DNA of 64,000 nucleotides from Prevotella sp. (lineage in GTDB: Bacteria > Bacteroidota > Bacteroidia > Bacteroidales > Bacteroidaceae), in contig JAEEJK010000086.1 of assembly GCA_016281815.1 (NCBI GenBank), forward strand, positions 27,369-91,368. The letters run 5' to 3'. The notes beneath the pieces are model-generated. The model was not told the origin of the DNA. It did no database searches and saw nothing but the letters and a program-made list of their open reading frames with translations. Below, piece after piece: positions 22,467 to 37,765 of the stretch. The position numbers and the translations under genes are program-made. How positions within the stretch are numbered: position 1 is the stretch's first letter; every line of letters starts with the position of its first letter.

Positions 22467-24422
22467 ATGCGGACATACACATTTCTCCTGACCCTTCTTA
22501 TCGCTGCGGTATCAGCCGTAGCCCAGGACTGGCAGCCCGTTGACGAGCATAAGTACAACGACGAGACCATTGTCTATGCGACATTGTGGGACCGCGAAGT
22601 CAGATTGTCTGAAAATGATCTCTATTACATTGTCGGTGTTTTCATAGATGGCGAGTGTCGTGCTTTGGCCAGGTCAGGCTATAGTTATGGAAATCCATTT
22701 TTATACACCCTCCGTGTTGTTGGTGACCGTGAGGCGGACAAGAACAAGAAGATGGAATTCCGCGTGTATGACAGTCAGACAGGCTTTGAATTCAATTTGT
22801 CAGCAGAGCGCGATGTCTTTTTCACAGGAGAGAGTGAGGGAGTGCCTTCAGATCCTATTTTCTTGTCTTTTATCCCTCCAACTTCACTGACGTTGTCCGA
22901 CATTTATATATATAAAGGTATAACGGTCAATCTCTATGATTATCTCCATGTCTTGCCAGAAAACTGCACATTGCCCAATGGCATCAGTTGGCAGGTGACA
23001 GGTGAAATTGCTGCGGTTGAAGGCAATATGTTGAAAGCGCTGCAGACAGGAACCACGACTTACACCCTTTTGATCAATGGCAAGGCAGTTGCCTCTGCCA
23101 AGGTAATTATAGAGGCAGGTGAGTTGCCTAAGGGTTTTATTGTCACTTTTGAGCCCGTTGCCGCAGGCGAGTCAAAGGTGATGACACTGACCCCCATTCC
23201 AGAGGATGCCTCTGTCGATGCCAATTGGTACAGTCTTGACATGACAGGTAAGATAAAAGGGTGGAAAGCCGCCGAGTGTGAGTTGGTCTCCACCGAACCG
23301 CTGACCTATCGTGTCACACCGCTTTATCCGGGTTGGATAGAGGTGCGTGTCAACAAGGACTCCATTCCGCTCTATGATACGAAGGGAGAGAGATATGTGG
23401 GTTTTGAAGCCGCTGCCCCCCTTAGGCTACAAAAGGGATGGCAGTGGTTGACCAACGCCTTCAACAGTATAGCAGCAGATGCATTCCAGACTGCCTATGA
23501 CGGAGATGCCCTCACAGAGATCCGCACACAGGAGCACCTGCTCTACAATGACCCCGAATGGGGCTATTTTGGCACCCTCATGGATGAGGGATTAGGACAG
23601 AACATTGCTTACAAGGTGCTGATGGCAGAGGGGCCACATCTCAGTCGGCTATTTGGAACTCGCTTTGCCACTCCCCTTCCTGTCGTTCTCGATGGCACAT
23701 GGACCTGGCTGCCTTTGCCATTCTGGTATGACCGTCGGCTTGGCCATGCCTTCACCAACACCGACTTGCCAGCAGGACTGACCCTCATCTCCAAGGAAAA
23801 AGGTTCTGCTGAGTGGAGCGGTACAGAATGGATAGGAGACCTGAAAGTGCTTCCTGCCGGCGAGAGCCTGTTATGCTATCACCCCACAGACCAGAGTTTC
23901 CTGCTCACATTTGCCGATGAGACTGCCATGGAGCAAGGCCATGAGCAACCAGCCTTTGCGGTCAACCGTGGGACTTGGGAATATGATGCCTCCTCATACC
24001 GTGACAATATGACCATGGTGGCAGTGATAGAGGATCTGCCATTCCCTGACGAATACACAATCGGAGCCTTCGTTGGCAGCGAATGCCGCGGTTCTGGAGC
24101 ATACACCGACGGTTACTATTTTATCACCATCCATACCGATCCAAGTGAGCGTGTCCGCTTTGTCTTGCGCCATGAGACAACGGGCATGGAATACCCCATT
24201 GATGAATGGGTACACTACAAGATGAGGCTGGGCAGCACCGCCCATCCCGTCCCCCTCCATTCCTCAGAATTGGCGACGGGCATCAGCCAGACGGGCACCA
24301 GCGAGACGAAGCCTGCTGATGTTTACGACCTGATGGGTCGGCGCGTGGCACCTTCCACTGGTCACGGCATCCTCCTCCGTCGTATGAATGATGGGCGAAT
24401 GCATAAAGTGCTTGTCAGATAA
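22467..24422 (+). CDS. Exported protein with an Ig-like domain and a T9SS-type C-terminal sorting signal; ORF track start 22440
   Basis: Signal peptide (..AVSAVAQ). A repeated module G(V/A)F(I/V)xxECR...FR occurs at both ends, with LxxGWxW repeats and a CTD ATGIS...VYDLMGRRV...KVLVR. Confidence 0.75.
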   Translation: MRTYTFLLTLLIAAVSAVAQDWQPVDEHKYNDETIVYATLWDREVRLSENDLYYIVGVFIDGECRALARSGYSYGNPFLYTLRVVGDREADKNKKMEFRVYDSQTGFEFNLSAERDVFFTGESEGVPSDPIFLSFIPPTSLTLSDIYIYKGITVNLYDYLHVLPENCTLPNGISWQVTGEIAAVEGNMLKALQTGTTTYTLLINGKAVASAKVIIEAGELPKGFIVTFEPVAAGESKVMTLTPIPEDASVDANWYSLDMTGKIKGWKAAECELVSTEPLTYRVTPLYPGWIEVRVNKDSIPLYDTKGERYVGFEAAAPLRLQKGWQWLTNAFNSIAADAFQTAYDGDALTEIRTQEHLLYNDPEWGYFGTLMDEGLGQNIAYKVLMAEGPHLSRLFGTRFATPLPVVLDGTWTWLPLPFWYDRRLGHAFTNTDLPAGLTLISKEKGSAEWSGTEWIGDLKVLPAGESLLCYHPTDQSFLLTFADETAMEQGHEQPAFAVNRGTWEYDASSYRDNMTMVAVIEDLPFPDEYTIGAFVGSECRGSGAYTDGYYFITIHTDPSERVRFVLRHETTGMEYPIDEWVHYKMRLGSTAHPVPLHSSELATGISQTGTSETKPADVYDLMGRRVAPSTGHGILLRRMNDGRMHKVLVR

Positions 24423-24465
24423 GAATCCTTGGGTGAGAAACAAAGAAACACAAAAAATAAAGACA

Positions 24466-27291
24466 ATGAAAAAACTGCTATCTTTATTATTCTTCCTGTT
24501 TGCAACAGTGGGAGTATGGGCTGATCATTGGACACCATCATCAGCCTACACACAGGGTGATGCGGTCATCTATGCAGAGGTGGTTTCCAACTCTTATACG
24601 GGCGCATCAGAAGTGGCTGCGTTTATTGATGGTGTGTGTGTCGCGTCAGCAAAAACCGAACATTTATATGGGGGTAGAGAGGGGATTAGGGCAATCTACG
24701 GCTATGTGCTGCGTGCCCGTGGCAACAATAATCTCGTCGGGAAGGAAATCACTTTCAAGGCCTACAATGACACGACAGGCTTGGAGTATAAACTGACACC
24801 AAGCGAGAAAATCACGTTTCAGTTAACGGGAACCTATGGGTATCCCTCCAATCCCATCAAACTCATGATGAAGGCACCTGAGTCTTATGCCATCAAACCG
24901 ATAGAGGTTGGTGTAGGAGAGAAGGTTGACCTCAACGACTTCTTGACATTAACGCCTGCCGATTCCGAGATACCCGACGGACTGTTTTGGACTATAAACG
25001 ACACCACTTATGCAGAAATTATCGACAGGCACTACTTGAAGGGAAAGGCCGTTGGAAGCGGAAAATTAATATTATGGGCGCCCTCCCCGGGAGGAAGACC
25101 TGATGTCATAGAAGGCAATTACACTGTTGTCAATCATGTCACCGCTATCAACATTGTCACTGATGAGGTCACTTTCGAACTGGGAGAACGTACCATCGAT
25201 CTCTTTATGCAAAACCGTCTTAACGGAGTAGTGGCCTATTCCCTCACGCCGGCCAATGCCACCGACAAGGTGAATTGGGAATTGAAAAATGACGGCATCA
25301 TTGTTATGGAAAATGGTACTTATCGCTCCAAGAAGGCTGGCGACACTCAGATTCGTCCTTATGTTGTGAAGAGTGACGGAAGCCGACTCTATCCCCCCAA
25401 CAACAAATGGATCAAGGTCCATATTGTCGTTTCCGTAACCGATATCGCCTTCGACACCTCCACCATCTATGCCAATGTAGGCGACGACATCTACCGACGT
25501 CTCGCCAACCATGTGGTGATAACCCCCAGTGATGCCACCAATCAGGACTTCACCTTCTCCACCACCTCCACAGGTCTTCTCGCCATCAATGGTACTTCCG
25601 CGGTGGTCAAGGGTGCGGGTTCTGGCACCATCACAGTCACATCGGCCGATGGTGCTAAGACAGGCAGCATCAGTTTCACGTTCTATAATCCGCTGAAGGA
25701 AGTGTCGTTCATAGAAGACCCTCTCTATTTCGACAAGAACTCGGAGACGGTGTCAAGCGTGCAGGGCAGGATAGCAAACAATATTGTCATTTCAGACATG
25801 TCAAGGGTGCAGGAAGGCATCATTGACTTGGCAGGTGTGCTCTCGGGTTCCGGCAGTGTTTCCTCCAGTGGGGTCTCCGTCACACTTACATCCAAGCAGT
25901 TGGAGAAGGGAGTCGCCAGCGTCACTGTCACCCTTGGATGGAAGGATTACTCCACCGACGATGCCGGCAAATTGGTATGGGGCTCTCCCCAAAGTTTTTC
26001 CGTCAACATTGGCTCGGAAATGACCTTCATTGACATTTTGGTTCGTCCCAATTCCGACGACCCGACTACTGGTGTGATACAGTTTATTCCGAGGCCAAAC
26101 GACATAGACTTCAACTGGGATGACTTGTCTTTTACCTTCTCCCACAACGACTTGGCCTGGAATTGTTTCTCTATCTCCAAGATAGCAAATGGCACATACA
26201 ATTACTCTTGTGATGTCCCCGGCACCTATATGATTTTTCTCAATAGTCCGATAGACAATAATTCAAGTGTAGAGATACCCTACAAAGCCATTTTGGAGAA
26301 CGGGTGGCAATGGAAGTCCAATCCTTATGGAATTGTTGAAAATTACGAATCATTCTTCGGCAGCAGTTTCTCAGAGGCACGCACATGGTCCGATCTGCTT
26401 ATCAACGATCCACTCTGGGGTTTCTACGGCACCATGCTCTCCAATGTACTCAAACAAAACGAGATGTACAAGGTGAAGATGGATGCCTCCAACACATCCT
26501 ATATTAGAAATGGAAATTTTGACGGCCATGCCGTTTCTGTTTCCATCCAACCCGGTTGGAACTGGGTTGGAAGTCCATTCATCTACAACCGTCTGTTGGC
26601 CAACAGCATCAAAAAGGACGGAGGCTTGGTCAAGGGTGTTGTCATCATGTCTAAGGACGATGGCTCGGCTGAATATGATGGAAGCAAATGGGTCGGTGAC
26701 CTGAAGTCCATCAGACGAGGACAGGGTTACATCATATACAATCCTGAAAGCAAGGCACTGTCCATCACTTTCAATGAGGAGAGTTCCATGGCTCCGGGCA
26801 ACGAGGATGGCTTACCTCTGGGCTCCCCTGTGCGTTCTGATCGTATGTGGGATTACGACCACACAAAGTTTGCCTCCAACATGACGGTGGTAGCCACCTT
26901 AGATAATCTGGAAGATGGAGACCGTTACACCATCGGTGCTTTTGTCGGAGATGAGTGCCGCGGCGAGGGCCGTTTCATCGATGGACTGGCATTCATCACC
27001 ATCCACAGCGAAGGCGGCGAGGAAGTAAAATTCCGTCTCTACGACACGCTCACGGGTATTTTCAGCGACATCGACCAGACCGTCATTTCCCAGACCCGTC
27101 TCGGTTCGCTTGACAATCCCCTGCGGCTCACCAGCCAAACCGTATCGACGGGCATCAGCACCCTCGATGGCAACTGTCTGTCTGACAGTGAGACCTTTGA
27201 TATCAATGGCAGACATCTCAACGGACTGAGACATGGTCTGAATATCGTGCGCAAGACCGACGGCAGTGTCCGCAAGGTCTTTGTGAAGTGA
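24466..27291 (+). CDS. Paralogous exported protein with multiple Ig-like (Big_2-like) domains and a T9SS-type CTD; ORF track start 24388
   Basis: Same architecture as the previous gene plus extra Ig repeats (TPANATDKVNW, ITPSDATNQ...VTSADGAKT). CTD STGIS...FDINGR...GLNIVRKTDGSVRKVFVK. Confidence 0.75.
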   Translation: MKKLLSLLFFLFATVGVWADHWTPSSAYTQGDAVIYAEVVSNSYTGASEVAAFIDGVCVASAKTEHLYGGREGIRAIYGYVLRARGNNNLVGKEITFKAYNDTTGLEYKLTPSEKITFQLTGTYGYPSNPIKLMMKAPESYAIKPIEVGVGEKVDLNDFLTLTPADSEIPDGLFWTINDTTYAEIIDRHYLKGKAVGSGKLILWAPSPGGRPDVIEGNYTVVNHVTAINIVTDEVTFELGERTIDLFMQNRLNGVVAYSLTPANATDKVNWELKNDGIIVMENGTYRSKKAGDTQIRPYVVKSDGSRLYPPNNKWIKVHIVVSVTDIAFDTSTIYANVGDDIYRRLANHVVITPSDATNQDFTFSTTSTGLLAINGTSAVVKGAGSGTITVTSADGAKTGSISFTFYNPLKEVSFIEDPLYFDKNSETVSSVQGRIANNIVISDMSRVQEGIIDLAGVLSGSGSVSSSGVSVTLTSKQLEKGVASVTVTLGWKDYSTDDAGKLVWGSPQSFSVNIGSEMTFIDILVRPNSDDPTTGVIQFIPRPNDIDFNWDDLSFTFSHNDLAWNCFSISKIANGTYNYSCDVPGTYMIFLNSPIDNNSSVEIPYKAILENGWQWKSNPYGIVENYESFFGSSFSEARTWSDLLINDPLWGFYGTMLSNVLKQNEMYKVKMDASNTSYIRNGNFDGHAVSVSIQPGWNWVGSPFIYNRLLANSIKKDGGLVKGVVIMSKDDGSAEYDGSKWVGDLKSIRRGQGYIIYNPESKALSITFNEESSMAPGNEDGLPLGSPVRSDRMWDYDHTKFASNMTVVATLDNLEDGDRYTIGAFVGDECRGEGRFIDGLAFITIHSEGGEEVKFRLYDTLTGIFSDIDQTVISQTRLGSLDNPLRLTSQTVSTGISTLDGNCLSDSETFDINGRHLNGLRHGLNIVRKTDGSVRKVFVK

Positions 27292-29149: not shown

Positions 29150-32100
29150 ATGGATACTGCAAGAAAAAACAGTCTCAGAGTCATGGCACGGCTATATGCT
29201 GTGCTCACAGGGCTGATACTGGCCGTATCGGCATTTGCCCAAGATGTGACAGTCGTGGTCAATCCCGTACAGCATGTTCTGCCCCCTCAGTCAGGACGCT
29301 ACCTCACCGATCCTGGGCGTTATTTTACCATCCAGTTGTTCAACCAAACAGATGAGCCGCAGTTAGTCCATCTCGGATTGCAGATTCAGCAACGTTTCCC
29401 CAACGACGAGTTGTGGGTGAGCACCAACATGGAGACCGGGCATATACCCCGCCAGCCCATTATCATTGAGCCCAACCAGCACAAGACACTCAACCCTGTT
29501 GAGATGAAGCATCTTTTCGATCATTTCACCAGCAGCGACATCTTTATAAGAGACGGGCGACACCTGAAGGTCACCAACGGAGATTACGGACTTTTGCCAG
29601 AGGGTGAATACGAGGCATTTATTACCGCATACAAATGGAATCCAGACCTTACGTCCCCTGTGGTAGTCAGTTCACCATCAGAGGGCAGGACCATGTTCTC
29701 GATTTGCTATGAGGCCGAACCGCCCAAATTCATTTATCCTGTGATAACCGGTTTCGATGGCGACCTCAATGATTTCAGGGTAGCAAAGTTGGACGTCAAC
29801 GACCCCTCTTTTGAGTGGATGGCCCCCACGCTCAACTGCAACGCCTCAATGGTCAATTTCAAGCACAACATCCGGATTGTTGAGTACAATGAGGCACTCA
29901 TGCCTGATGAGGTCATGCAAAGCGGTGTACCTACTTTCCTTGAGAAGGCACAGATTGTAGGCAACCGATACACCATCCCTCCCGCCTATGCCAGGCAGAT
30001 GATAGAGCCAGGGAAGGCCAAGGGCAAAGTCTATGCCGTGCAACTCACGGCCACTACCGACTACTTCAGAACCAATGCAGGGTCAGTCAATTTCACCCTT
30101 CTCAAGAATGATGGCAAAAGCCCTATTTTGCTCTTCCAACTCTATGACCCCAGGGTGCAAGAGGATTTGTATGAACTCAGCCTTGAAGACACCGACTCTA
30201 ACTTGGATAAAAAAGATTCTCTCTATGTTTTCGAACAGCCTTTACTTACTCGACCCTGGTTTGAAGGTGTCAGTCGGGTCATGACAATGGGAAGAGACAT
30301 CCCATGTGAGTGGCGTAAGGCATGGTTTGCCGGTGGTATGGGGGAGCGGCAGGATACCGTGGACTTCAAATATAACTTATGTCTCTACAAAGGCAACTCC
30401 GCTGACACAAAGGACGACATATACAAGTCTGCCCCTATTTGGGAAAGCCAGACTGAGGAACTGAATGACACCATCAAGTGGGCGAAGATTAAAGACAAGG
30501 TGGAAGAAGGAGACTATTTCATACTCAGGGTCACTGCGGAGGCCACCAACGAAAAGTCCATCCGCATGCTGCCCGACTCACTCAATTTTATAGATTTCGC
30601 TACTACGGTCAATTACAGCGAGATGTTTGCCTACCAATGCGGCAATGATGACGTAAGGGTGAAAAACACCACCAGCATCAGCAAGAAGCCCTCAAAGGAT
30701 CAGCGCATCAAAATCGGCCAGTTCTATATGACGCTGAATGATGATGTGCAGTTCAATTCCGACAATGCACTTGAAGGGACGGGATGGGTCAACTGGGCGC
30801 CGAGTGGTGATCCGCTGTTCAATATGAAAGCCCTCGTAGCCGTCAAGTTCGACAACCTGAAAATCAATACCGACTATGAGGTGTTTGAAGGAGTCTGCAA
30901 GACCTATGGGGAGAGCACCAAGGAAGGTGGTTATGATGAGAGCATGCTCGATTCCCTTTTCTCTGACAATGGCATCAACAATGTTTTCGGCGCGCTTGCC
31001 CTGCCCGATGACGTTCGCGACAAGGTCTCTGACTATGGCACCGATGCCAGCCAGAGTTTGGCCAAGAGTTATAACTTGGGAAAGTTTTACTCTCAGTACA
31101 AGACAGCGCGCAAGGTATGGGACAGTTGGAACAGCGGTGAAGTAAAACTCTATTTCCCCGTGGAGATGCCCCAACAGATCAAGCAGTTCCTGCCTACCGA
31201 CTTCAACATCCAGATTGCCAACATGCAGTTCACGCCACAGTCGGCTCAGATGAATCTCATCGGAGAGGTGGCGTTGCCCAACAGTGATGTATTTGAAGGT
31301 CAGAACATGCTGATCTTCGGTGCTCCCCGCCTGTGTATCTCACCCGACCGCTTCTTCCCCGAGGAAGGCGTGCTTGCCTTGTTGAGCAACCTGCCCCTGA
31401 AGGATCCCTCAAGCGACTTCAAGATGGTGTTCAAGGCTCCCCACAACCCCAATGCGCCCGAGCCCAACGATGGATGTTTCCTGCAATGGGACAAAGGTGA
31501 GTTCAGCGGACTGGGTCTTGAGATTGCCGTCACCATCCCCAACACCAAAAGGGTGATCGACGGCAAGGTGTCTGAGGGTGTGCCCGCATTGCTCGACCTG
31601 TCGACAGTGATCAGGGCCAATGAGCGTGTCGGCGACTTCATCGCCGAGGGCACTCTCACCCCATTTGAGGTCAACGACCTGCCCGGTTGGAAGTTTGCCA
31701 AGCAAAAGGGTGGCAATGAAATGAAGGTGATCTTCGACCACAACATGAGTGAGAACGGCAAGGGTATGCCCACGCTTGAAAAGATCAAAGAAAAATTCCC
31801 GAGCAACACCTTCGACCCAAGTCTCTGCGGCACCTCCACACAGAGCAACTGGAATGCCTGGCAGGGTGTATATATCAGCGAACTGTCGGTGGAATTCCCC
31901 AAGTTTGCTATTTTCGGCAGTGGTGACCAAGGTTTGACGATAGGCGCACGCGACATGATTATAGATGCCTCTGGTGTCACCTGCCAGGTGTTCGCCGACG
32001 ACATATTCAGTGCCTCCACAGGCTCTTGCGGAGGCTGGGCTTTCAGTGTCAAGAATGCTACCGTTGACATCATCCAAAACAATTTTGACAACTGCGCCCT

Positions 32101-35100
32101 GAAGGGCGGCTTCGGTGTCCCGCTTCTGGGCAAGGCAGCACAGGCTAAGGCTGCCAAGGAGAGCGGAGAGAAGACCACCGACAAGGAAGATGGCACAGAT
32201 ATAGAATACACCTGCCAGATCAGGCACCTCACTAAGCCCAAGGCCGTCACCTACCAAGCCTTGGGAGAGGACGGAGAACAAAAGGTAACTAAATCGCGCA
32301 AGGTGTATGATGATGACCGTCTCGCTTACCTCTTCCGCACTGAGAACGTCGATAAGAACGCATTGACAATGAATTTCTTCGTCGCCGAGATGACGCTGAC
32401 CAGCGAGCAGACCTACTTCCTCGTGGAAGCCAGGGACAAGGATGACGGAAAAACCGAAACCCAGGTGGAACTGTGTATGGGAGGAAAAATCGTCATCGCT
32501 GGGACAGAGGGTATCAATGATCGTCTGAAAAAAATCTCCGAGAAACTGGGCGACATGAAACTCAAGTTGCCCGACATCACCTTCTGCAAGATGCGGCTGT
32601 CGAACACGAAAGAAGCCGACTGGAAGGAGTGGGACTTGGATGACAAGAAACTTCACCAAACGAGGTTGGAAAGCGAGGCAAATACTGCCAGTGATAACTC
32701 CAAGAACCTGTTGCACTATACTTTCGCCCAAGGAGGAGAGTTGGAACTGGGCAAAGAATGCTATTTCAACTACGGAGAATGGGCCTTGGCATCCGAGGCC
32801 AAGAAACTCGGACCGTTCAGTTTCGACTTGGAGGGATTTGACGTCAATTACTCCAATGAGAAGTTGTTGCTCGACGTGAAAGGAAAAATCGGCCTCATCG
32901 AAGACCAGGTCAGTGTTTCTGCCGGAGTAGGGATAGAAGCCAAACTGCACAAAAATGGCGGCATCAGCAACTGGTATTTCTCCGACGGACGTATTTCTTT
33001 CAAAGAGTTGGCTGTGGATGTGGAGTTCACGGGGCTGGCCCTGAAAGGTATGCTGAAGATGCAGGACGAGCCAGGCAAGGATAAGGGGTATGCCGGCAGC
33101 CTGGATGTCAGTGTCGTGGGACTCTTTAAGGTGAGTTGTACAGGAGGATACTACTCCCACAAGGCCTCTGCTGAAGAGAAATTGAAATTGAAAGACAAGA
33201 ATGAGGATAGTTATTCCTGGGGCTATTTCACCTGCGACTTGGAGATGGATGCCAAAACGTCAATCCTTCGTGTTGACCCAGTGGTCATTACCCGCATCAG
33301 CGGAGGTTTCTATGTCAACTGCAAGCCAAACATATCATCGGGCGGTATGGATGCTCGGCGTGGCGACCCACCAACCAACAGCACTTACGGAGCCATCGGA
33401 GTATCCTTCGGCATGGGACTGGCGGCTTCCTCCGGTGAGGAGACCCTGTCTGGAAGCGTGGATCTGACCGTTGTCTATAACAGGAAGTTACATAAACTCA
33501 CTTCCTTCGTCTTCCTCGGCAATGTGAACGCCCTCAGCGGCATTGTCAATTCCGATGTCAAGTTGGTCTATATCAATGAAAATGGAGAGGGTGATAATGA
33601 AGACCGAGTCAAGGACCGTTATCTCTGCCTGAACATCACCACCAGCGGCGGCTACGACAACAAGACGCTCAACAACTATATCTCAAAAGCCACGGGTCAA
33701 CTCACAGAAATGAAGTCAGAACTCGATGCTTTCAACAATAAGTTGAACGGCTTTGCCGACGATCCTTACGGAGGATTGGGAGCCCTCAAAAGCACATATG
33801 CGAACAAGACGGGCGAGAAGGCTGAGAAGAAAGTCGACAGCGACAGCGAAATGAGCGAAGCAGATAAGGCACGGTTTGAGAACAAGGCCGGAGGTGAGGA
33901 AAACAAGGAGGGCAAGACGAAAGCAGGTGAGTTTGTCATCCCGTTGGAACTGAAGATCACCTGGGTGGAGAATTATGTGAAGGATAAGAGATGGCACTTG
34001 TATCTTGGCGAGCCTGACAAGGACAAGCGGTGCAAGTTCACGCTGATTGACTTCAAGGACAAGTCGGGAATCGTGAGTGTCAACATCGGTGCCGACTCCT
34101 ACCTGTGCATTGGCAACGAACTTCCCAACCATGGACAGTTGCCTCCCATCCCACAGGAAATCACTGAGTTCCTCAACGGGCACAAGAAGAGCACTGCCTC
34201 TATGGGAGCCGACATGGCTAAATTGGATCGCTCAAGGGCCAAGGTAGTGAGTGAGATTCTCAACAATGCCGATGGCGGCGGAGGCGTGATGCTTGGCGCA
34301 TCGGCATGGGGATTTATTGATGTCAATCTCGGCCTCTTCTATGCTGACCTCAGAGCCATCGCTGGCTTCGACGTGGCCATGGTACACTATGATACGCCTC
34401 AGTACTGTGATAACTATGGCGGTTATATGGGTCACAATGGATGGTATGCCATGGGGCAACTCTATGCTTACCTCGCTGCAAAGTTCGGTCTGCACATCAA
34501 ACTCGGAAAACTTATTGATGAGCGCATCGACCTCGTGGATGCCGGCATCGGCGGACTGCTTGAAGTGGGATTGCCACGACCCACATGGGTGGAGGGCAAG
34601 GCCAGGGTAAAGGTACATTTGCTCGGAGGCTTGGTGAAAATTGACAAATCATTCTCATTTGCCGCAGGCGACCACTGCGTGCCATTCAAAGGCAATGCCC
34701 TCGATGACTTTGCTCTCTTTGGTGATTGCTCCATCGCTTCCGACAGTCTGGCAGAGGGCTGGGATGAAAAAAATGCCATCAGTATAGGTAAAGCCCGCAA
34801 TGCCGTCTTGGAGACTTACGCCGGCCTGGGTGAGAATTACCGTCTATACGATCCGACAACAGGCGGAGAATTGGAGAGTGACACCGGGTATGATGAGACT
34901 CAACTGAAACCTTATGCCTCCAGAACGTATGTGTTTGATATCGACAAGACAAGAGTCTATGCGGAAAATGCAAAAGCCAATGTCAACAAATGTCTGGGCG
35001 TCAAACTCTATGAGATACCTGGGGATATCTGGGATAGGAGCAAGTATGCCTATGCCTGGGATAACATAATAAGTAGGTTCAGCGGAAACAGATGGAACAA

Positions 35101-37765
35101 TGCAATTCTGGGCAGATGGATGAAGAGCAGTTCGTTGGACAGTGAGACAAAGCCCTATCCCCAATATTGGACAGACCAGGATGCCATCCTTGACAAATCA
35201 AGGGCGTGGGAGGGCTATGGTCAGGCAGGTATGGATCATGGTGCAAGACAAGCCATCAGTAAATATGAGGTTACTGCCGGTGTCGGCATTGTTGAATCCA
35301 AAGGACGCAGGTTCCATCTAAAACTGCCTCAACTCAAGCCAGATTGCTACTATATCCTGGAAGTCTCCGGGCAGGCATTCGAGATTTTGAACGGCAAGCG
35401 TGTGTGGACACAGATGACCGTGGAGGATATCTACCACAAGAAACATAAGGAGTATGTGCGTTGGGAGCAGAAAAAACTTTTCTTCTTCCGCACCAAGTCC
35501 GAGGATGAACAAATCCCCGAACAGATTTTCGACATCCAGCCCTATGTGGCATTGGCATACCCGTCGGTGGGCATCAACAAACTCTTCAATAAAAAAACCG
35601 ACGCCAAATTCGACAAAGCCAATTTCATCGACCTGAAGAGACCTGTCATCGCCCTCAACACCGACATTCGCGATGCCTTCAAGGATGGCAAGTTGGAATG
35701 GGAGATGAACTGCTGGGGGAAACATGAAGTGATAAGTAATGAGTGGGAGATGGTTGATGGAGGACTTGTGATGCAGCCCAAAATCGCCTTCGACATCACT
35801 AGTGGGTTCGATGAATACAGGCTGCGGCTGAATTACAAATACCAAGTACCCTATCAATGCAAAGGGGCCAACATCCAAGGACAGTTTGTGGATAAATCAC
35901 AAATATACATGACCAAATTCCTGGAATTGCCTGAAAACGATAAGGCAGAGGCCAGCATCAAGATGCTGAAAGCGTTAGGAGTCGATGATGATGTTATGAA
36001 GAAACAGGGCTTCACCGATGTCAAGACCATGACGATAGAACAAAAAAATAACGTCATTTATTCTGCAACACTATTGATATTGATGGGCTCATTTACTAAT
36101 AACACAGAAAAGGTGAATCAGATGGTTGATGTCCTCGGAGAATACTGCAAAGACATCGATATAAAAGAAACTACCTGCTACAAGGACACCACGGTGGTAC
36201 TCGCCGACATGTGGCTCGGGCAGGAAGACCACGATTGGTGTAGGGGAATTGGCTACCAAAAGCCCTACGAAAAGCAGTTCATCGGTGTCAGACCCACCTC
36301 ATTGCCAACTTTCTCCGACCAATACATCCATGCTGGCAGTTGGGATAAAGACTTGGATATTGTCTTCAACAAAGGCGGCCTTCGACTGACCGACCCCTAC
36401 CTCTACTTCGCTTATCTCTCGAAGTGGGTATTCATAGGCGACATGCAAATTGAAAAATACAGTTTCGACAACGTCAAGATACCCTATGCTTCCGAATCAC
36501 TCACATTCAGTTACAACGGCCATGATATCACTGGTTCGCTTATGAAGGGAAACAGTTACCAGCGAGGCAAGAACTACTATCTGAACTTCATGCGGAGAGA
36601 CATGTACAACGCGTGGGCTGGTGCCTGGTGGGTGGATAATGCTTCAATACGTGACAATCAGTCGGCGGGGTTAATTAAGTATCCGCTGCCCACCATCATG
36701 GATGACGACTGGGGGTTGACAGTTGCCAACAGCAATGGCATCACACCGACATGGGTAAAGTATAATCAAAATAATGAAGATGCCGACTTTGGAATCCGCA
36801 ACCTTGTGTACGACTTCTTGGCTCCCTACTACATAGCCGATGCACTAAGTAAAAAAATGAAAGAGATATGCGAGGAATTCATCTACTGGTATAACATTGA
36901 TATCGATGAAAAAGACAAATATCTCAACAATGTAATCACCAATTGGCAAAACACGCACCGAGGACAATATCTCACCATTGAGAGCAGAGGATACACTGTA
37001 AAGGTACCCTACTACCAGTTCCCTCTTATCTTCGGAGGCTGCTTCGGTGGAGGCAAAGAATTCCTTACAGGGGATGATGTGTCGCGCTCCAACCGCTCGT
37101 TCGACCATTCGCTTAAGAAAGCCGAATTGCCCGACGAACGGCGCGACTCAAAGACATCCAATCTAGTGTTTTTCAGATTGTGCGGTGGTGTCCCCTTCCA
37201 AACCTACGACAACAAGTACACCGACAATTACCGCACGATGAATGATGAAGATATCAAAGATGTCTTCAATAAGGCCAAACAGCAAGAACTGGACTCTATT
37301 TCTGCGGTCCTCAAAAAAATCTATTATGTTAAAGAAGAATATGACGAAGCTTTTGAGACCTATAAAAAGGATATTGACAAAAAGTATGACAAATACTGGG
37401 AAAAGATAAACAAGAAAAACGAAAAGAACAAAAAGAGCAAAAACAACAAGAATGCTTACAAGTATGTTGACTACGATGAATTCTATCTTTCGGGTGCACT
37501 TAAAAGTATCAAAGAATTCACCTTCCAAGGCTATAGGGTGAACAACTTCAACCTCGGAACAGGCCAATATACATACTATTCCGGCTTAGGACCCGATGAA
37601 TATACAGACAATTGGTATTACCGAACAACCACTGTGGGCGACAAAGGAGAAAAGAACGTGATGTCACTGCTATATAAGTATATGAAAGCGAATTTAAAGA
37701 AAGGGATCAAGACAAGTTCATTGGATACAATCATACCGGTGACAGTGAACGGCGTGCAGCAGTAA
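29150..37765 (+). CDS. Giant exported protein (2871 aa), TANFOR-like N-terminus, long beta-rich body, function unknown
   Basis: Uninterrupted 8.6-kb ORF with a signal peptide (..AVSAFAQ). The N-domain VTVVVNPVQHVLPP..YLTDP..FTIQLFN...PIIIEP resembles TANFOR domains from recall. Also a Gly/aromatic conserved block GHNGWYAMGQLYAYL...LPRPTWVEG. Confidence 0.7.
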   Translation: MDTARKNSLRVMARLYAVLTGLILAVSAFAQDVTVVVNPVQHVLPPQSGRYLTDPGRYFTIQLFNQTDEPQLVHLGLQIQQRFPNDELWVSTNMETGHIPRQPIIIEPNQHKTLNPVEMKHLFDHFTSSDIFIRDGRHLKVTNGDYGLLPEGEYEAFITAYKWNPDLTSPVVVSSPSEGRTMFSICYEAEPPKFIYPVITGFDGDLNDFRVAKLDVNDPSFEWMAPTLNCNASMVNFKHNIRIVEYNEALMPDEVMQSGVPTFLEKAQIVGNRYTIPPAYARQMIEPGKAKGKVYAVQLTATTDYFRTNAGSVNFTLLKNDGKSPILLFQLYDPRVQEDLYELSLEDTDSNLDKKDSLYVFEQPLLTRPWFEGVSRVMTMGRDIPCEWRKAWFAGGMGERQDTVDFKYNLCLYKGNSADTKDDIYKSAPIWESQTEELNDTIKWAKIKDKVEEGDYFILRVTAEATNEKSIRMLPDSLNFIDFATTVNYSEMFAYQCGNDDVRVKNTTSISKKPSKDQRIKIGQFYMTLNDDVQFNSDNALEGTGWVNWAPSGDPLFNMKALVAVKFDNLKINTDYEVFEGVCKTYGESTKEGGYDESMLDSLFSDNGINNVFGALALPDDVRDKVSDYGTDASQSLAKSYNLGKFYSQYKTARKVWDSWNSGEVKLYFPVEMPQQIKQFLPTDFNIQIANMQFTPQSAQMNLIGEVALPNSDVFEGQNMLIFGAPRLCISPDRFFPEEGVLALLSNLPLKDPSSDFKMVFKAPHNPNAPEPNDGCFLQWDKGEFSGLGLEIAVTIPNTKRVIDGKVSEGVPALLDLSTVIRANERVGDFIAEGTLTPFEVNDLPGWKFAKQKGGNEMKVIFDHNMSENGKGMPTLEKIKEKFPSNTFDPSLCGTSTQSNWNAWQGVYISELSVEFPKFAIFGSGDQGLTIGARDMIIDASGVTCQVFADDIFSASTGSCGGWAFSVKNATVDIIQNNFDNCALKGGFGVPLLGKAAQAKAAKESGEKTTDKEDGTDIEYTCQIRHLTKPKAVTYQALGEDGEQKVTKSRKVYDDDRLAYLFRTENVDKNALTMNFFVAEMTLTSEQTYFLVEARDKDDGKTETQVELCMGGKIVIAGTEGINDRLKKISEKLGDMKLKLPDITFCKMRLSNTKEADWKEWDLDDKKLHQTRLESEANTASDNSKNLLHYTFAQGGELELGKECYFNYGEWALASEAKKLGPFSFDLEGFDVNYSNEKLLLDVKGKIGLIEDQVSVSAGVGIEAKLHKNGGISNWYFSDGRISFKELAVDVEFTGLALKGMLKMQDEPGKDKGYAGSLDVSVVGLFKVSCTGGYYSHKASAEEKLKLKDKNEDSYSWGYFTCDLEMDAKTSILRVDPVVITRISGGFYVNCKPNISSGGMDARRGDPPTNSTYGAIGVSFGMGLAASSGEETLSGSVDLTVVYNRKLHKLTSFVFLGNVNALSGIVNSDVKLVYINENGEGDNEDRVKDRYLCLNITTSGGYDNKTLNNYISKATGQLTEMKSELDAFNNKLNGFADDPYGGLGALKSTYANKTGEKAEKKVDSDSEMSEADKARFENKAGGEENKEGKTKAGEFVIPLELKITWVENYVKDKRWHLYLGEPDKDKRCKFTLIDFKDKSGIVSVNIGADSYLCIGNELPNHGQLPPIPQEITEFLNGHKKSTASMGADMAKLDRSRAKVVSEILNNADGGGGVMLGASAWGFIDVNLGLFYADLRAIAGFDVAMVHYDTPQYCDNYGGYMGHNGWYAMGQLYAYLAAKFGLHIKLGKLIDERIDLVDAGIGGLLEVGLPRPTWVEGKARVKVHLLGGLVKIDKSFSFAAGDHCVPFKGNALDDFALFGDCSIASDSLAEGWDEKNAISIGKARNAVLETYAGLGENYRLYDPTTGGELESDTGYDETQLKPYASRTYVFDIDKTRVYAENAKANVNKCLGVKLYEIPGDIWDRSKYAYAWDNIISRFSGNRWNNAILGRWMKSSSLDSETKPYPQYWTDQDAILDKSRAWEGYGQAGMDHGARQAISKYEVTAGVGIVESKGRRFHLKLPQLKPDCYYILEVSGQAFEILNGKRVWTQMTVEDIYHKKHKEYVRWEQKKLFFFRTKSEDEQIPEQIFDIQPYVALAYPSVGINKLFNKKTDAKFDKANFIDLKRPVIALNTDIRDAFKDGKLEWEMNCWGKHEVISNEWEMVDGGLVMQPKIAFDITSGFDEYRLRLNYKYQVPYQCKGANIQGQFVDKSQIYMTKFLELPENDKAEASIKMLKALGVDDDVMKKQGFTDVKTMTIEQKNNVIYSATLLILMGSFTNNTEKVNQMVDVLGEYCKDIDIKETTCYKDTTVVLADMWLGQEDHDWCRGIGYQKPYEKQFIGVRPTSLPTFSDQYIHAGSWDKDLDIVFNKGGLRLTDPYLYFAYLSKWVFIGDMQIEKYSFDNVKIPYASESLTFSYNGHDITGSLMKGNSYQRGKNYYLNFMRRDMYNAWAGAWWVDNASIRDNQSAGLIKYPLPTIMDDDWGLTVANSNGITPTWVKYNQNNEDADFGIRNLVYDFLAPYYIADALSKKMKEICEEFIYWYNIDIDEKDKYLNNVITNWQNTHRGQYLTIESRGYTVKVPYYQFPLIFGGCFGGGKEFLTGDDVSRSNRSFDHSLKKAELPDERRDSKTSNLVFFRLCGGVPFQTYDNKYTDNYRTMNDEDIKDVFNKAKQQELDSISAVLKKIYYVKEEYDEAFETYKKDIDKKYDKYWEKINKKNEKNKKSKNNKNAYKYVDYDEFYLSGALKSIKEFTFQGYRVNNFNLGTGQYTYYSGLGPDEYTDNWYYRTTTVGDKGEKNVMSLLYKYMKANLKKGIKTSSLDTIIPVTVNGVQQ

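Follow-up and report, generated by a model that had tools for sequence, protein, structure and literature searches.

The TANFOR class of large Bacteroidota proteins (TIGR02542, T_forsyth_147) has been described by Jana, Salomon & Bosis (2020, Life Sci Alliance, PMC7073777) as a group of polymorphic toxins with many C-terminal toxin domains, one of which (BaCT) was shown to be a DNase. The 339 TANFOR proteins listed there (RPS-BLAST E<1e-7 over at least 90 aa) come almost all from Bacteroidetes, and their gene neighbourhoods were found to be enriched in Fn3, SprB, PKD and type IX secretion system (T9SS) C-terminal domains (CTD), on which basis export by the T9SS was hypothesised. The class is large and little studied (bioinformatics and assays of isolated toxin domains so far); a 3078-aa TANFOR protein of Tannerella forsythia was detected in a vesicle proteome (PMC10682907), a literature search on the word TANFOR recovered no later paper that treats it in substance, and searches on giant Prevotella/BspA proteins and generic outer-membrane operons recovered nothing relevant. 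Here we analysed a 64,000-nucleotide stretch (hereafter the window) of contig JAEEJK010000086.1 (assembly GCA_016281815.1) from a Prevotella-like Bacteroidota bacterium of the ruminant gut. One of its genes, C (positions 29150-37765, forward strand), encodes a giant protein of 2871 aa which, judged by its sequence, is a divergent and previously unrecognised member of the TANFOR class.

An earlier reading of the window, made from its letters alone (the sequence-only reading), had noticed a TANFOR-like start in C, and profile comparison bears this out: 32 N-termini of the giant family matched 12 TANFOR N-termini from other genomes (TIGR02542 E 1e-6 to 1e-14) with an hhalign probability of 99.0% (E 7.4e-18, 124 columns). 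Furthermore, in 5/8 genomes a TANFOR N-terminus (TIGR02542 E 1e-9 to 1e-14) and the core domain of the giant reside in the same open reading frame (ORF, 2258-2324 aa), and the loci with strong TANFOR matches have a gene resembling D (the downstream neighbour of C) directly downstream in 7/7 cases and one resembling B (its upstream neighbour) directly upstream in 6/7, the seventh being without a recognisable B. It is on this N-terminal profile homology, the shared core ORFs and the B/D neighbours of the TANFOR loci that we base the assignment. Weak matches to TIGR02542 were present in 4/32 family N-termini (best 1.3e-4), and a distant C-like protein has a weak NCBIfam match to the same model at its N-terminus. 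The core profile (residues 1600-1880), searched against 1.84 billion proteins, retrieved 1771 cluster representatives (at 50% identity) at E<=1e-3 and 1580 at E<=1e-10, mostly 1450-4970 aa long; in the phylum genomes sampled, core-domain matches are spread across the classes of Bacteroidota. The published list of 339 proteins holds no Prevotella, and its TANFOR count for Hallella seregens ATCC 51272 is zero (PMC7073777); the genome of this strain encodes a homologue of the giant within a full operon. The class is broader than its hidden Markov model (HMM) captures, and includes abundant giants of rumen and gut Prevotellaceae.

Some further observations touch on the composition of the class. 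In some genomes from other orders, extra ORFs of 1030-1730 aa also begin with a TANFOR-like domain (TIGR02542 E 1e-6 to 1e-8; G696:C1:806955-812442; G546:C20:30705-31067; two on G546:C17; G112:C63:4591-4974). Several of them lie within 10-20 kb of the C-like gene, which hints that one B/D pair may serve more than one TANFOR-headed protein. In the BaCT DNase toxin proteins of Prevotella shahii DSM 15611 (1606-1661 aa; Supplemental Data 3 of PMC7073777), the toxin is preceded by a signal peptide and some 1400 residues in which no TANFOR domain was detected. Their size fits a minimal C-like scaffold with a toxin, and they may be further members missed by the TANFOR HMM. Two loci labelled as Firmicutes contain C homologues (32-33% identity): next to that assigned to Lachnospiraceae (L072) there are A and B genes of Bacteroidota type, and that assigned to Oscillospiraceae (L074) has a D gene. 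We consider that both probably represent binning contamination and not transfer.

The gene order A(1-2)-B-C-D-E-F (Table 1) recurs in about 70 loci of species-representative genomes, wherever the contig extends far enough, and spans Prevotellaceae, Bacteroidaceae, Muribaculaceae, Phocaeicola and Porphyromonadaceae (with Hallella seregens ATCC 51272, Prevotella sp. 885 and Prevotella sp. P3-122 among the isolates). B is the best conserved protein of the operon (49-78% identity across some 60 loci); it has a signal peptide, no transmembrane helix, a Ser/Asn/Tyr-rich composition and a conserved ...NYxYTF near the C-terminus, features from which we predict a barrel fold, and it matched nothing in Pfam, NCBIfam or the PDB profile searches. 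In distant genomes (of a different family, order or class within the phylum), genes for C-like proteins of 1440-2400 aa stand between those for B-like (541-580 aa) and D-like (635-775 aa) proteins at 21-30% identity, and the D homologues of distant loci match Pfam fn3. The distant B homologues have 22-29% identity, and in every distant locus examined a D-like gene comes after the C-like one. Since B-like and D-like genes flank C-like genes even there, the core of the system is the B-C-D trio (a putative barrel of ~560 residues, the giant and an FN3 protein of ~700 residues). This trio is the most interesting by-product of the analysis: that almost all members examined have the same two neighbours, a particular orphan barrel and an FN3 protein, is new for the TANFOR class.

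The giant resembles the published TANFOR toxins in being large, Sec-exported and of Bacteroidota origin, in its homologous N-terminal immunoglobulin (Ig)-like domain, in a core domain situated ~1500 residues into the protein, in a variable C-terminal module at family level, and in the adjoining Fn3 gene (cf. the Fn3 enrichment of TANFOR neighbourhoods in PMC7073777). It differs from them in lacking a toxin/immunity pair, in carrying ~800 aa of extra conserved C-terminal sequence, and in the payloads of its clade, which are leucine-rich repeat (LRR) arrays or nothing. Adhesin-type LRR arrays, or the lack of any payload, are thus additions to what the class was seen to comprise. The constant partner B is not mentioned in the available part of PMC7073777, where, having no known domain, it could not appear in a domain-based neighbourhood screen.

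The N-terminus of C is signal-peptide-like (ending ...SAFA ahead of QDVTV; family consensus ...AQ(D/E)VTV) and constitutes the sole hydrophobic window above threshold, as it does in the five neighbours that have one; judged from the sequence, C has no N-terminal inner-membrane anchor, and its signal peptide is presumably cleaved. This single N-terminal segment and the conservation of cysteines both speak for export. Two AlphaFold models built from 60-sequence alignments (residues 31-1195 and 1196-2350, mean pLDDT 79.6 and 78.6, respectively) predict beta-sandwiches at the N-terminus, for which Foldseek (residues 31-500) found tandem FN3/Ig arrays (SpyCEP, C5a peptidase, transglutaminase C-terminal domains, RbmA, EpoR), in agreement with the FN3/Ig-like segments of the sequence-only reading. 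The body that follows (~685-1840) consists mostly of antiparallel hairpin strands of 10-21 residues, with long amphipathic runs at 685-1116, 1223-1502, 1591-1655 and 1709-1840 (mean Kyte-Doolittle hydropathy of 1.5 on one strand face and -0.9 on the other). Charged linkers and a 30-residue helix break up this succession of strands. The claim of a beta-rich, amphipathic body of more than 1000 aa, other than ordinary Ig repeats, is therefore sustained by the predicted strands and their hydropathy; the peptides quoted for it lie at residues 1223-1234 (FSFDLEGFDVNY), 1296-1304 (LALKGMLKM) and 1313-1322 (GYAGSLDVSV). The module 825-992 is kept even in relatives of 1440 aa. The charged helical insert noticed earlier (NNYISKATGQLTEMKSELDAFNNKLN, residues 1508-1533) coincides with the predicted helix 1505-1534 (H310-339 of the model), which leads into a charged, disordered linker (~1532-1587, pLDDT <50, model residues 337-392). 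The Gly/aromatic block is likewise real: it corresponds to the six longest strands (1709-1840), and no other part of the protein is as well conserved (0.6-0.7 identity to 34 homologues). Neither Pfam nor NCBIfam has a family for the giant or its six same-strand neighbours (22440-43431), bar a sub-threshold LBF_2017 match in D, and phmmer and profile searches found no PDB relatives of the whole giant, of its residues 31-1195, 1196-2350, 1600-1880 and 2351-2871, or of B.

The sequence-only reading had proposed a compositionally distinct C-terminus that functions as an exchangeable tip, and had suggested homologue alignment as a check. When conservation was mapped by alignment with 34 diverse homologues and by BLAST segments against 119, it was found to run from residue ~30 to ~2690 (with gappy intervals at 1001-1050, 1151-1200, 1551-1600, 1951-2050 and 2251-2350), the part 2346-2696 being kept in nearly all homologues of 2600-4700 aa. 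The drop was located in this way, and the C-terminal additions do differ among homologues. The compositional shift exists as well (insertion 2697-2766: GC 0.314 against 0.49 for the whole gene, 26% Lys); the Lys-rich stretch (KKDIDKKYDKYWEKINKKNEKNKKSKNNK, residues 2739-2767, nt 37364-37450), on the other hand, is not the exchangeable tip, as it lies between conserved blocks, within an insertion that is present in only ~17% of the homologues (occupancy 0.17). Separate BLAST segments match the last conserved block, 2767-2807, whose terminal motif YRVNxYNxxTGxY (YRVNNFNLGTGQY in C, residues 2795-2807) occurs in 159/196 family sequences. The true junction follows this motif, ~110 residues downstream of where the swap point had been placed. 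Beyond it the tails fall into discrete classes: shorter than 30 residues (n=44), 30-100 residues (n=40, including the 64 of C), helical tails of ~180-230 residues (n=10) and BspA-type LRR arrays of 1200-2000 residues (n=62), with three further tails of 400-1200 residues; distant long family members carry classical LRR_4/LRR_8 repeats instead. Given these tail classes, an exchangeable C-terminal module does exist at the level of the family, while C itself has essentially none.

Three rumen Prevotella metagenome-assembled genomes (MAGs) each contain three paralogous giant operons (RGIG3793: L005, L013, L044; RGIG4794: L012, L014, L035; RGIG4424: L019, L020, L022), and such three-operon MAGs mix short-tailed with LRR-tailed giants. 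The mixture of tails within one MAG is consistent with diversification of a displayed end.

Taken together, we consider it rather probable that C is a payload-less, divergent TANFOR-class member and one gene of a conserved envelope module, whose core is B-C-D and to which Bacteroidales add A, E and F. In this scenario, the giant would be exported by Sec and cleaved between AFA and QD (as the sequence pattern indicates), and its N-terminal TANFOR/Ig domain would act as a class-wide handle that docks it to the cognate barrel B and/or to D, for which the near-invariant B-C-D synteny argues. The amphipathic beta-meander body of ~1100 residues, with the secondary structure predicted by AlphaFold, would form a large curved sheet resembling a barrel wall, and could serve either as a stalk or as an anchor, on the outer membrane or within it. 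The C-terminal third would then face outward in an adhesive or structural role, LRR arrays (or toxins, in the published class) being the modules that relatives add after YRVNxYNxxTGxY; in support of this orientation, BspA-type LRR arrays follow the same motif in close relatives, LRR_4/LRR_8 repeats are fused to distant ones, and the T. forsythia TANFOR protein of 3078 aa was detected in vesicles. Several points weigh against this explanation. The N-terminus of C has no match to TIGR02542 even at E<=1, and no family member or genome match reaches the curated cut-off of that model (67 bits), so that C lies below its every threshold. The Foldseek matches of the body are weak in E-value, TM-score and deviation alike, and a novel toxin or enzyme may have escaped detection in residues 1881-2696. 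The barrel fold of B, the localisation and topology of the proteins and the physical interaction of B, C and D are what we infer. Expression is supported by bovine metatranscriptome contigs, which cover the giant gene and its neighbours at 96-100% identity, with the reservation that such runs may carry contaminating DNA.

Table 1. Features of the giant gene C and of its operon (window coordinates; residue numbers refer to the C protein).
Feature	Coordinates	Strand	Remarks
Small AraC-type helix-turn-helix (HTH) regulator, 122 aa	21889..22257	+	immediately precedes the operon
A1, secreted Ig-domain protein, 651 aa from ATG	22467..24422	+	signal peptide, no other hydrophobic segment; paralogue of A2
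A2, secreted Ig-domain protein, ~941 aa	24466..27291	+	paralogue of A1; weak Big_2 match (E 0.067)
B, putative outer-membrane beta-barrel, 583 aa	27360..29111	+	most conserved partner of the giant
C, residues 1-30	29150..29239	+	Sec signal peptide, predicted cut between AFA and QD
C, residues 31-200	29240..29749	+	TANFOR-like Ig-fold domain; beta-sandwich (AlphaFold)
C, residues 201-500	29750..30649	+	two more Ig/FN3-like beta-sandwich domains (AlphaFold, Foldseek)
C, residues ~597-662	30938..31135	+	small helical bundle (AlphaFold helices 567-632 of the N-terminal model)
C, residues 685-1116	31202..32497	+	first run of long beta-hairpins (AlphaFold)
C, residues 1223-1502	32816..33655	+	14 long amphipathic antiparallel strands (AlphaFold)
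C, residues 1505-1590	33662..33919	+	30-residue helix, then disordered charged linker; low conservation
C, residues 1591-1880	33920..34789	+	family-defining core domain, including Gly/aromatic strands 1709-1840
C, residues 1881-2250	34790..35899	+	mixed alpha/beta; variable patch 1951-2050
C, residues 2251-2345	35900..36184	+	variable helical insert; occupancy 0.33-0.53, GC 0.389
C, residues 2346-2696	36185..37237	+	conserved C-terminal region of Prevotellaceae-type giants
C, residues 2697-2766	37238..37447	+	Lys/Glu-rich, AT-rich, clade-specific insertion of 70 residues
C, residues 2767-2807	37448..37570	+	last conserved block, ending YRVNxYNxxTGxY
C, residues 2808-2871 and stop codon	37571..37765	+	short variable tail, 64 residues
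D, secreted FN3-rich protein, 767 aa	37785..40088	+	conserved downstream partner; 34-69% identity across loci
E, lipoprotein, 249 aa	40120..40869	+	lipobox LTISC; accessory of the Bacteroidales-type operon
F, lipoprotein, 846 aa	40891..43431	+	FSSC, then acidic run; weakly conserved accessory (22-38% identity, often partial)

As to the means of export, the orphan barrel of ~560 residues beside the giant appears to be a stronger lead than the T9SS: its constant adjacency suggests, by analogy with two-partner secretion (TPS), a dedicated outer-membrane partner. More tentatively, we propose that the B-C-D trio may be an unrecognised, T9SS-independent outer-membrane secretion and display pathway of Bacteroidota, in which the barrel, on recognising the TANFOR domain, would either export the giant or anchor it, and the barrel-wall-like body could insert in membranes and present toxins (in Flavobacteriia) or LRR adhesins (in rumen Prevotella); we regard this as an idea with less than even prospects. 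It would be analogous to TPS and contact-dependent inhibition (CDI) systems (CdiB-CdiA, FhaC-FHA), and made of unrelated parts. Both arrangements place a giant exoprotein gene beside a gene for a dedicated outer-membrane barrel, and both exoproteins combine a conserved N-terminal handle and a long beta-rich shaft with an exchangeable C-terminal payload after a conserved motif. The likeness is one of logic only, as C and B have no TPS (Haemagg_act) domain, Omp85/POTRA barrel or beta-helix repeats (Pfam, E<=0.01), the body of the giant is made of antiparallel hairpins, and an extra, obligatory FN3 partner is present. Were the trio a secretion device, a phylum dominant in the gut would be shown to have a new pathway across the outer membrane, and the giants of rumen Prevotella would be identified as candidate adhesins; the export hypothesis for TANFOR giants has become testable.

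Two other groups of surface proteins invite comparison. Those of the BspA type (T. forsythia BspA; LRR_5, DUF285) share their repeats with the close homologues of the giant, ~40% of which end in 1200-2000 aa of such LRRs; C has neither LRR_5 nor DUF285 (Pfam), whereas homologues of 4200-4770 aa have them, and in these relatives the LRR array is a module appended to a TANFOR-type scaffold of 2700 aa. The inverse autotransporters (intimin/invasin) also arrange a beta-rich membrane-proximal part, outward domains and a C-terminal binding tip in this succession and have Ig-like domains; they differ in that the giant has no Pfam intimin/invasin barrel and is built on a ~10x larger scale, its barrel is a separate gene and its Ig domains are N-terminal.

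Among the alternatives, the one that survives best holds that C is an outer-membrane channel and no displayed scaffold, with a beta-body that forms a giant membrane-integral barrel or pore of its own (like SprA or LptD). Foldseek searches of the body against the PDB returned weak matches only (E 4e-4 to 1e-2, TM-scores 0.1-0.35, root-mean-square deviations 10-26 Å), in which outer-membrane barrels (LptD, porins, ushers, SprA, SlpA; probability up to 0.99 for porins) are the best and the ApoB100 beta-belt also appears. These matches, the length of the strands (12-21 residues) with their one hydrophobic face and many conserved Gly, and a tendency of short turns to alternate with longer loops all speak for such a pore. 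Nevertheless, we hold it to be unlikely, since TM-scores and deviations of this order are far from those of a shared closed barrel, the strand runs are broken by the 30-residue helix, the disordered charged linker and helical segments, and a separate, dedicated barrel gene is always present. We read the modelled body as a large curved antiparallel meander sheet, which may close into a barrel, leave an open groove or stack in two layers, and do not take its Foldseek matches to mean a shared fold.

We find it more doubtful that C is a polymorphic toxin exported by the T9SS, which would deliver an unrecognised C-terminal toxin to competitors or host cells. Its membership of the TANFOR class, in which many C-terminal toxins are known (PMC7073777), and the variability of the C-terminal parts would favour such a role; moreover, the genome encodes SprA and genuine CTD cargo, and A1 and A2 end in a strand pair (…VYDLMGRRV…GILLRR…KVLVR) that resembles, by eye only, the end of a T9SS CTD. 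However, Pfam, NCBIfam and PDB sequence and profile searches detected no toxin domain in the giant, and the 34 scanned relatives held none either (LRR, Ig and FN3 only). Residues 1881-2696 are conserved across the clade and not polymorphic, and no small immunity-like gene follows C, since D, E and F are partners conserved across loci. With regard to export, no T9SS CTD was matched in the C-termini of A1, A2 and C (last 105 residues of C) at E<=10, and a genome-wide PF18962 scan (E<=1) gave 25 sites, none of them in the operon. The presence of SprA in 63/63 carriers is uninformative on T9SS dependence, as 289/301 genomes of the order have it. As the protein ends 64 residues after the terminal motif, we argue that a scaffold or adhesive role is likelier, and that C, as far as its sequence tells, is most likely a scaffold or adhesin-type variant and not a toxin.

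The proposal of the sequence-only reading that the body is an AsmA/TamB-like rod, in which lipids would cross the periplasm to the outer membrane along an open hydrophobic groove and B would be its TamA-like partner, is highly improbable: the very long amphipathic antiparallel strand runs (over more than 1000 residues), the adjoining barrel gene (~580 aa) and the lipid-binding beta-belt of ApoB100 among the Foldseek matches would be in its favour, but no AsmA, TamB or DUF490 match was found in the giant (Pfam, NCBIfam), hhalign of its two halves against an alignment of 15 TamB sequences from its own genus and order gave probabilities of 0.1-0.2%, no lipid-transfer protein is among the best 50 PDB matches of the body, B has no Omp85 or POTRA match (Pfam), the protein starts with a signal peptide of cleavable appearance and continues with Ig domains, the same genome has two bona fide TamB genes on other contigs, TamB occurs in 21/21 relatives whereas the giant core is patchy (36/301 evenly sampled genomes of the order, 31/401 of the phylum) and reaches three copies in some rumen MAGs, and C-terminal additions of extracellular type (LRR arrays, and the toxin payloads published in PMC7073777) would be senseless on a periplasmic lipid bridge.

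The region as a whole is flanked by SusC/SusD genes and by genes for rhamnogalacturonan-II-type glycoside hydrolases, and its sequence is contained in gut metagenomes of bovine, sheep and goat. By core-domain search, the giant core is single-copy in its own genome. Another ORF of 3315 aa on a different contig (G000:C25:19782-19949) has a weak C-terminal Por_Secre_tail match (E 5e-4); as the core-domain search gave one genome copy only, this ORF probably has no relation to the family of C and encodes an ordinary giant adhesin of the T9SS. In the operon, A1, A2 and E (22467-27291, 40120-40869) have a module of ~55 residues in common (…IGAFVGxECRGxG…FITIH…), and at another locus (L003) a 114-aa HTH_18/AraC gene occupies the same place as the small regulator upstream of A1; hybrid two-component genes also lie upstream. 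The intergenic space between D and E (window 40089-40119) is a simple ATTGAAA-type repeat (TTGAAAATTGAAGATTGAAAATTGAAAATTGAAC) that draws contigs from RNA and DNA runs alike to a depth of 500, with unrelated flanks; this depth is almost certainly caused by low-complexity cross-matching and marks no transcript peak. Directly after the operon, a DUF6088 (AbiEi-type antitoxin-like) gene (window 43701-44330) marks the right-hand end of the insertion that separates the SusC/D genes from those of the rhamnogalacturonan-II hydrolases.

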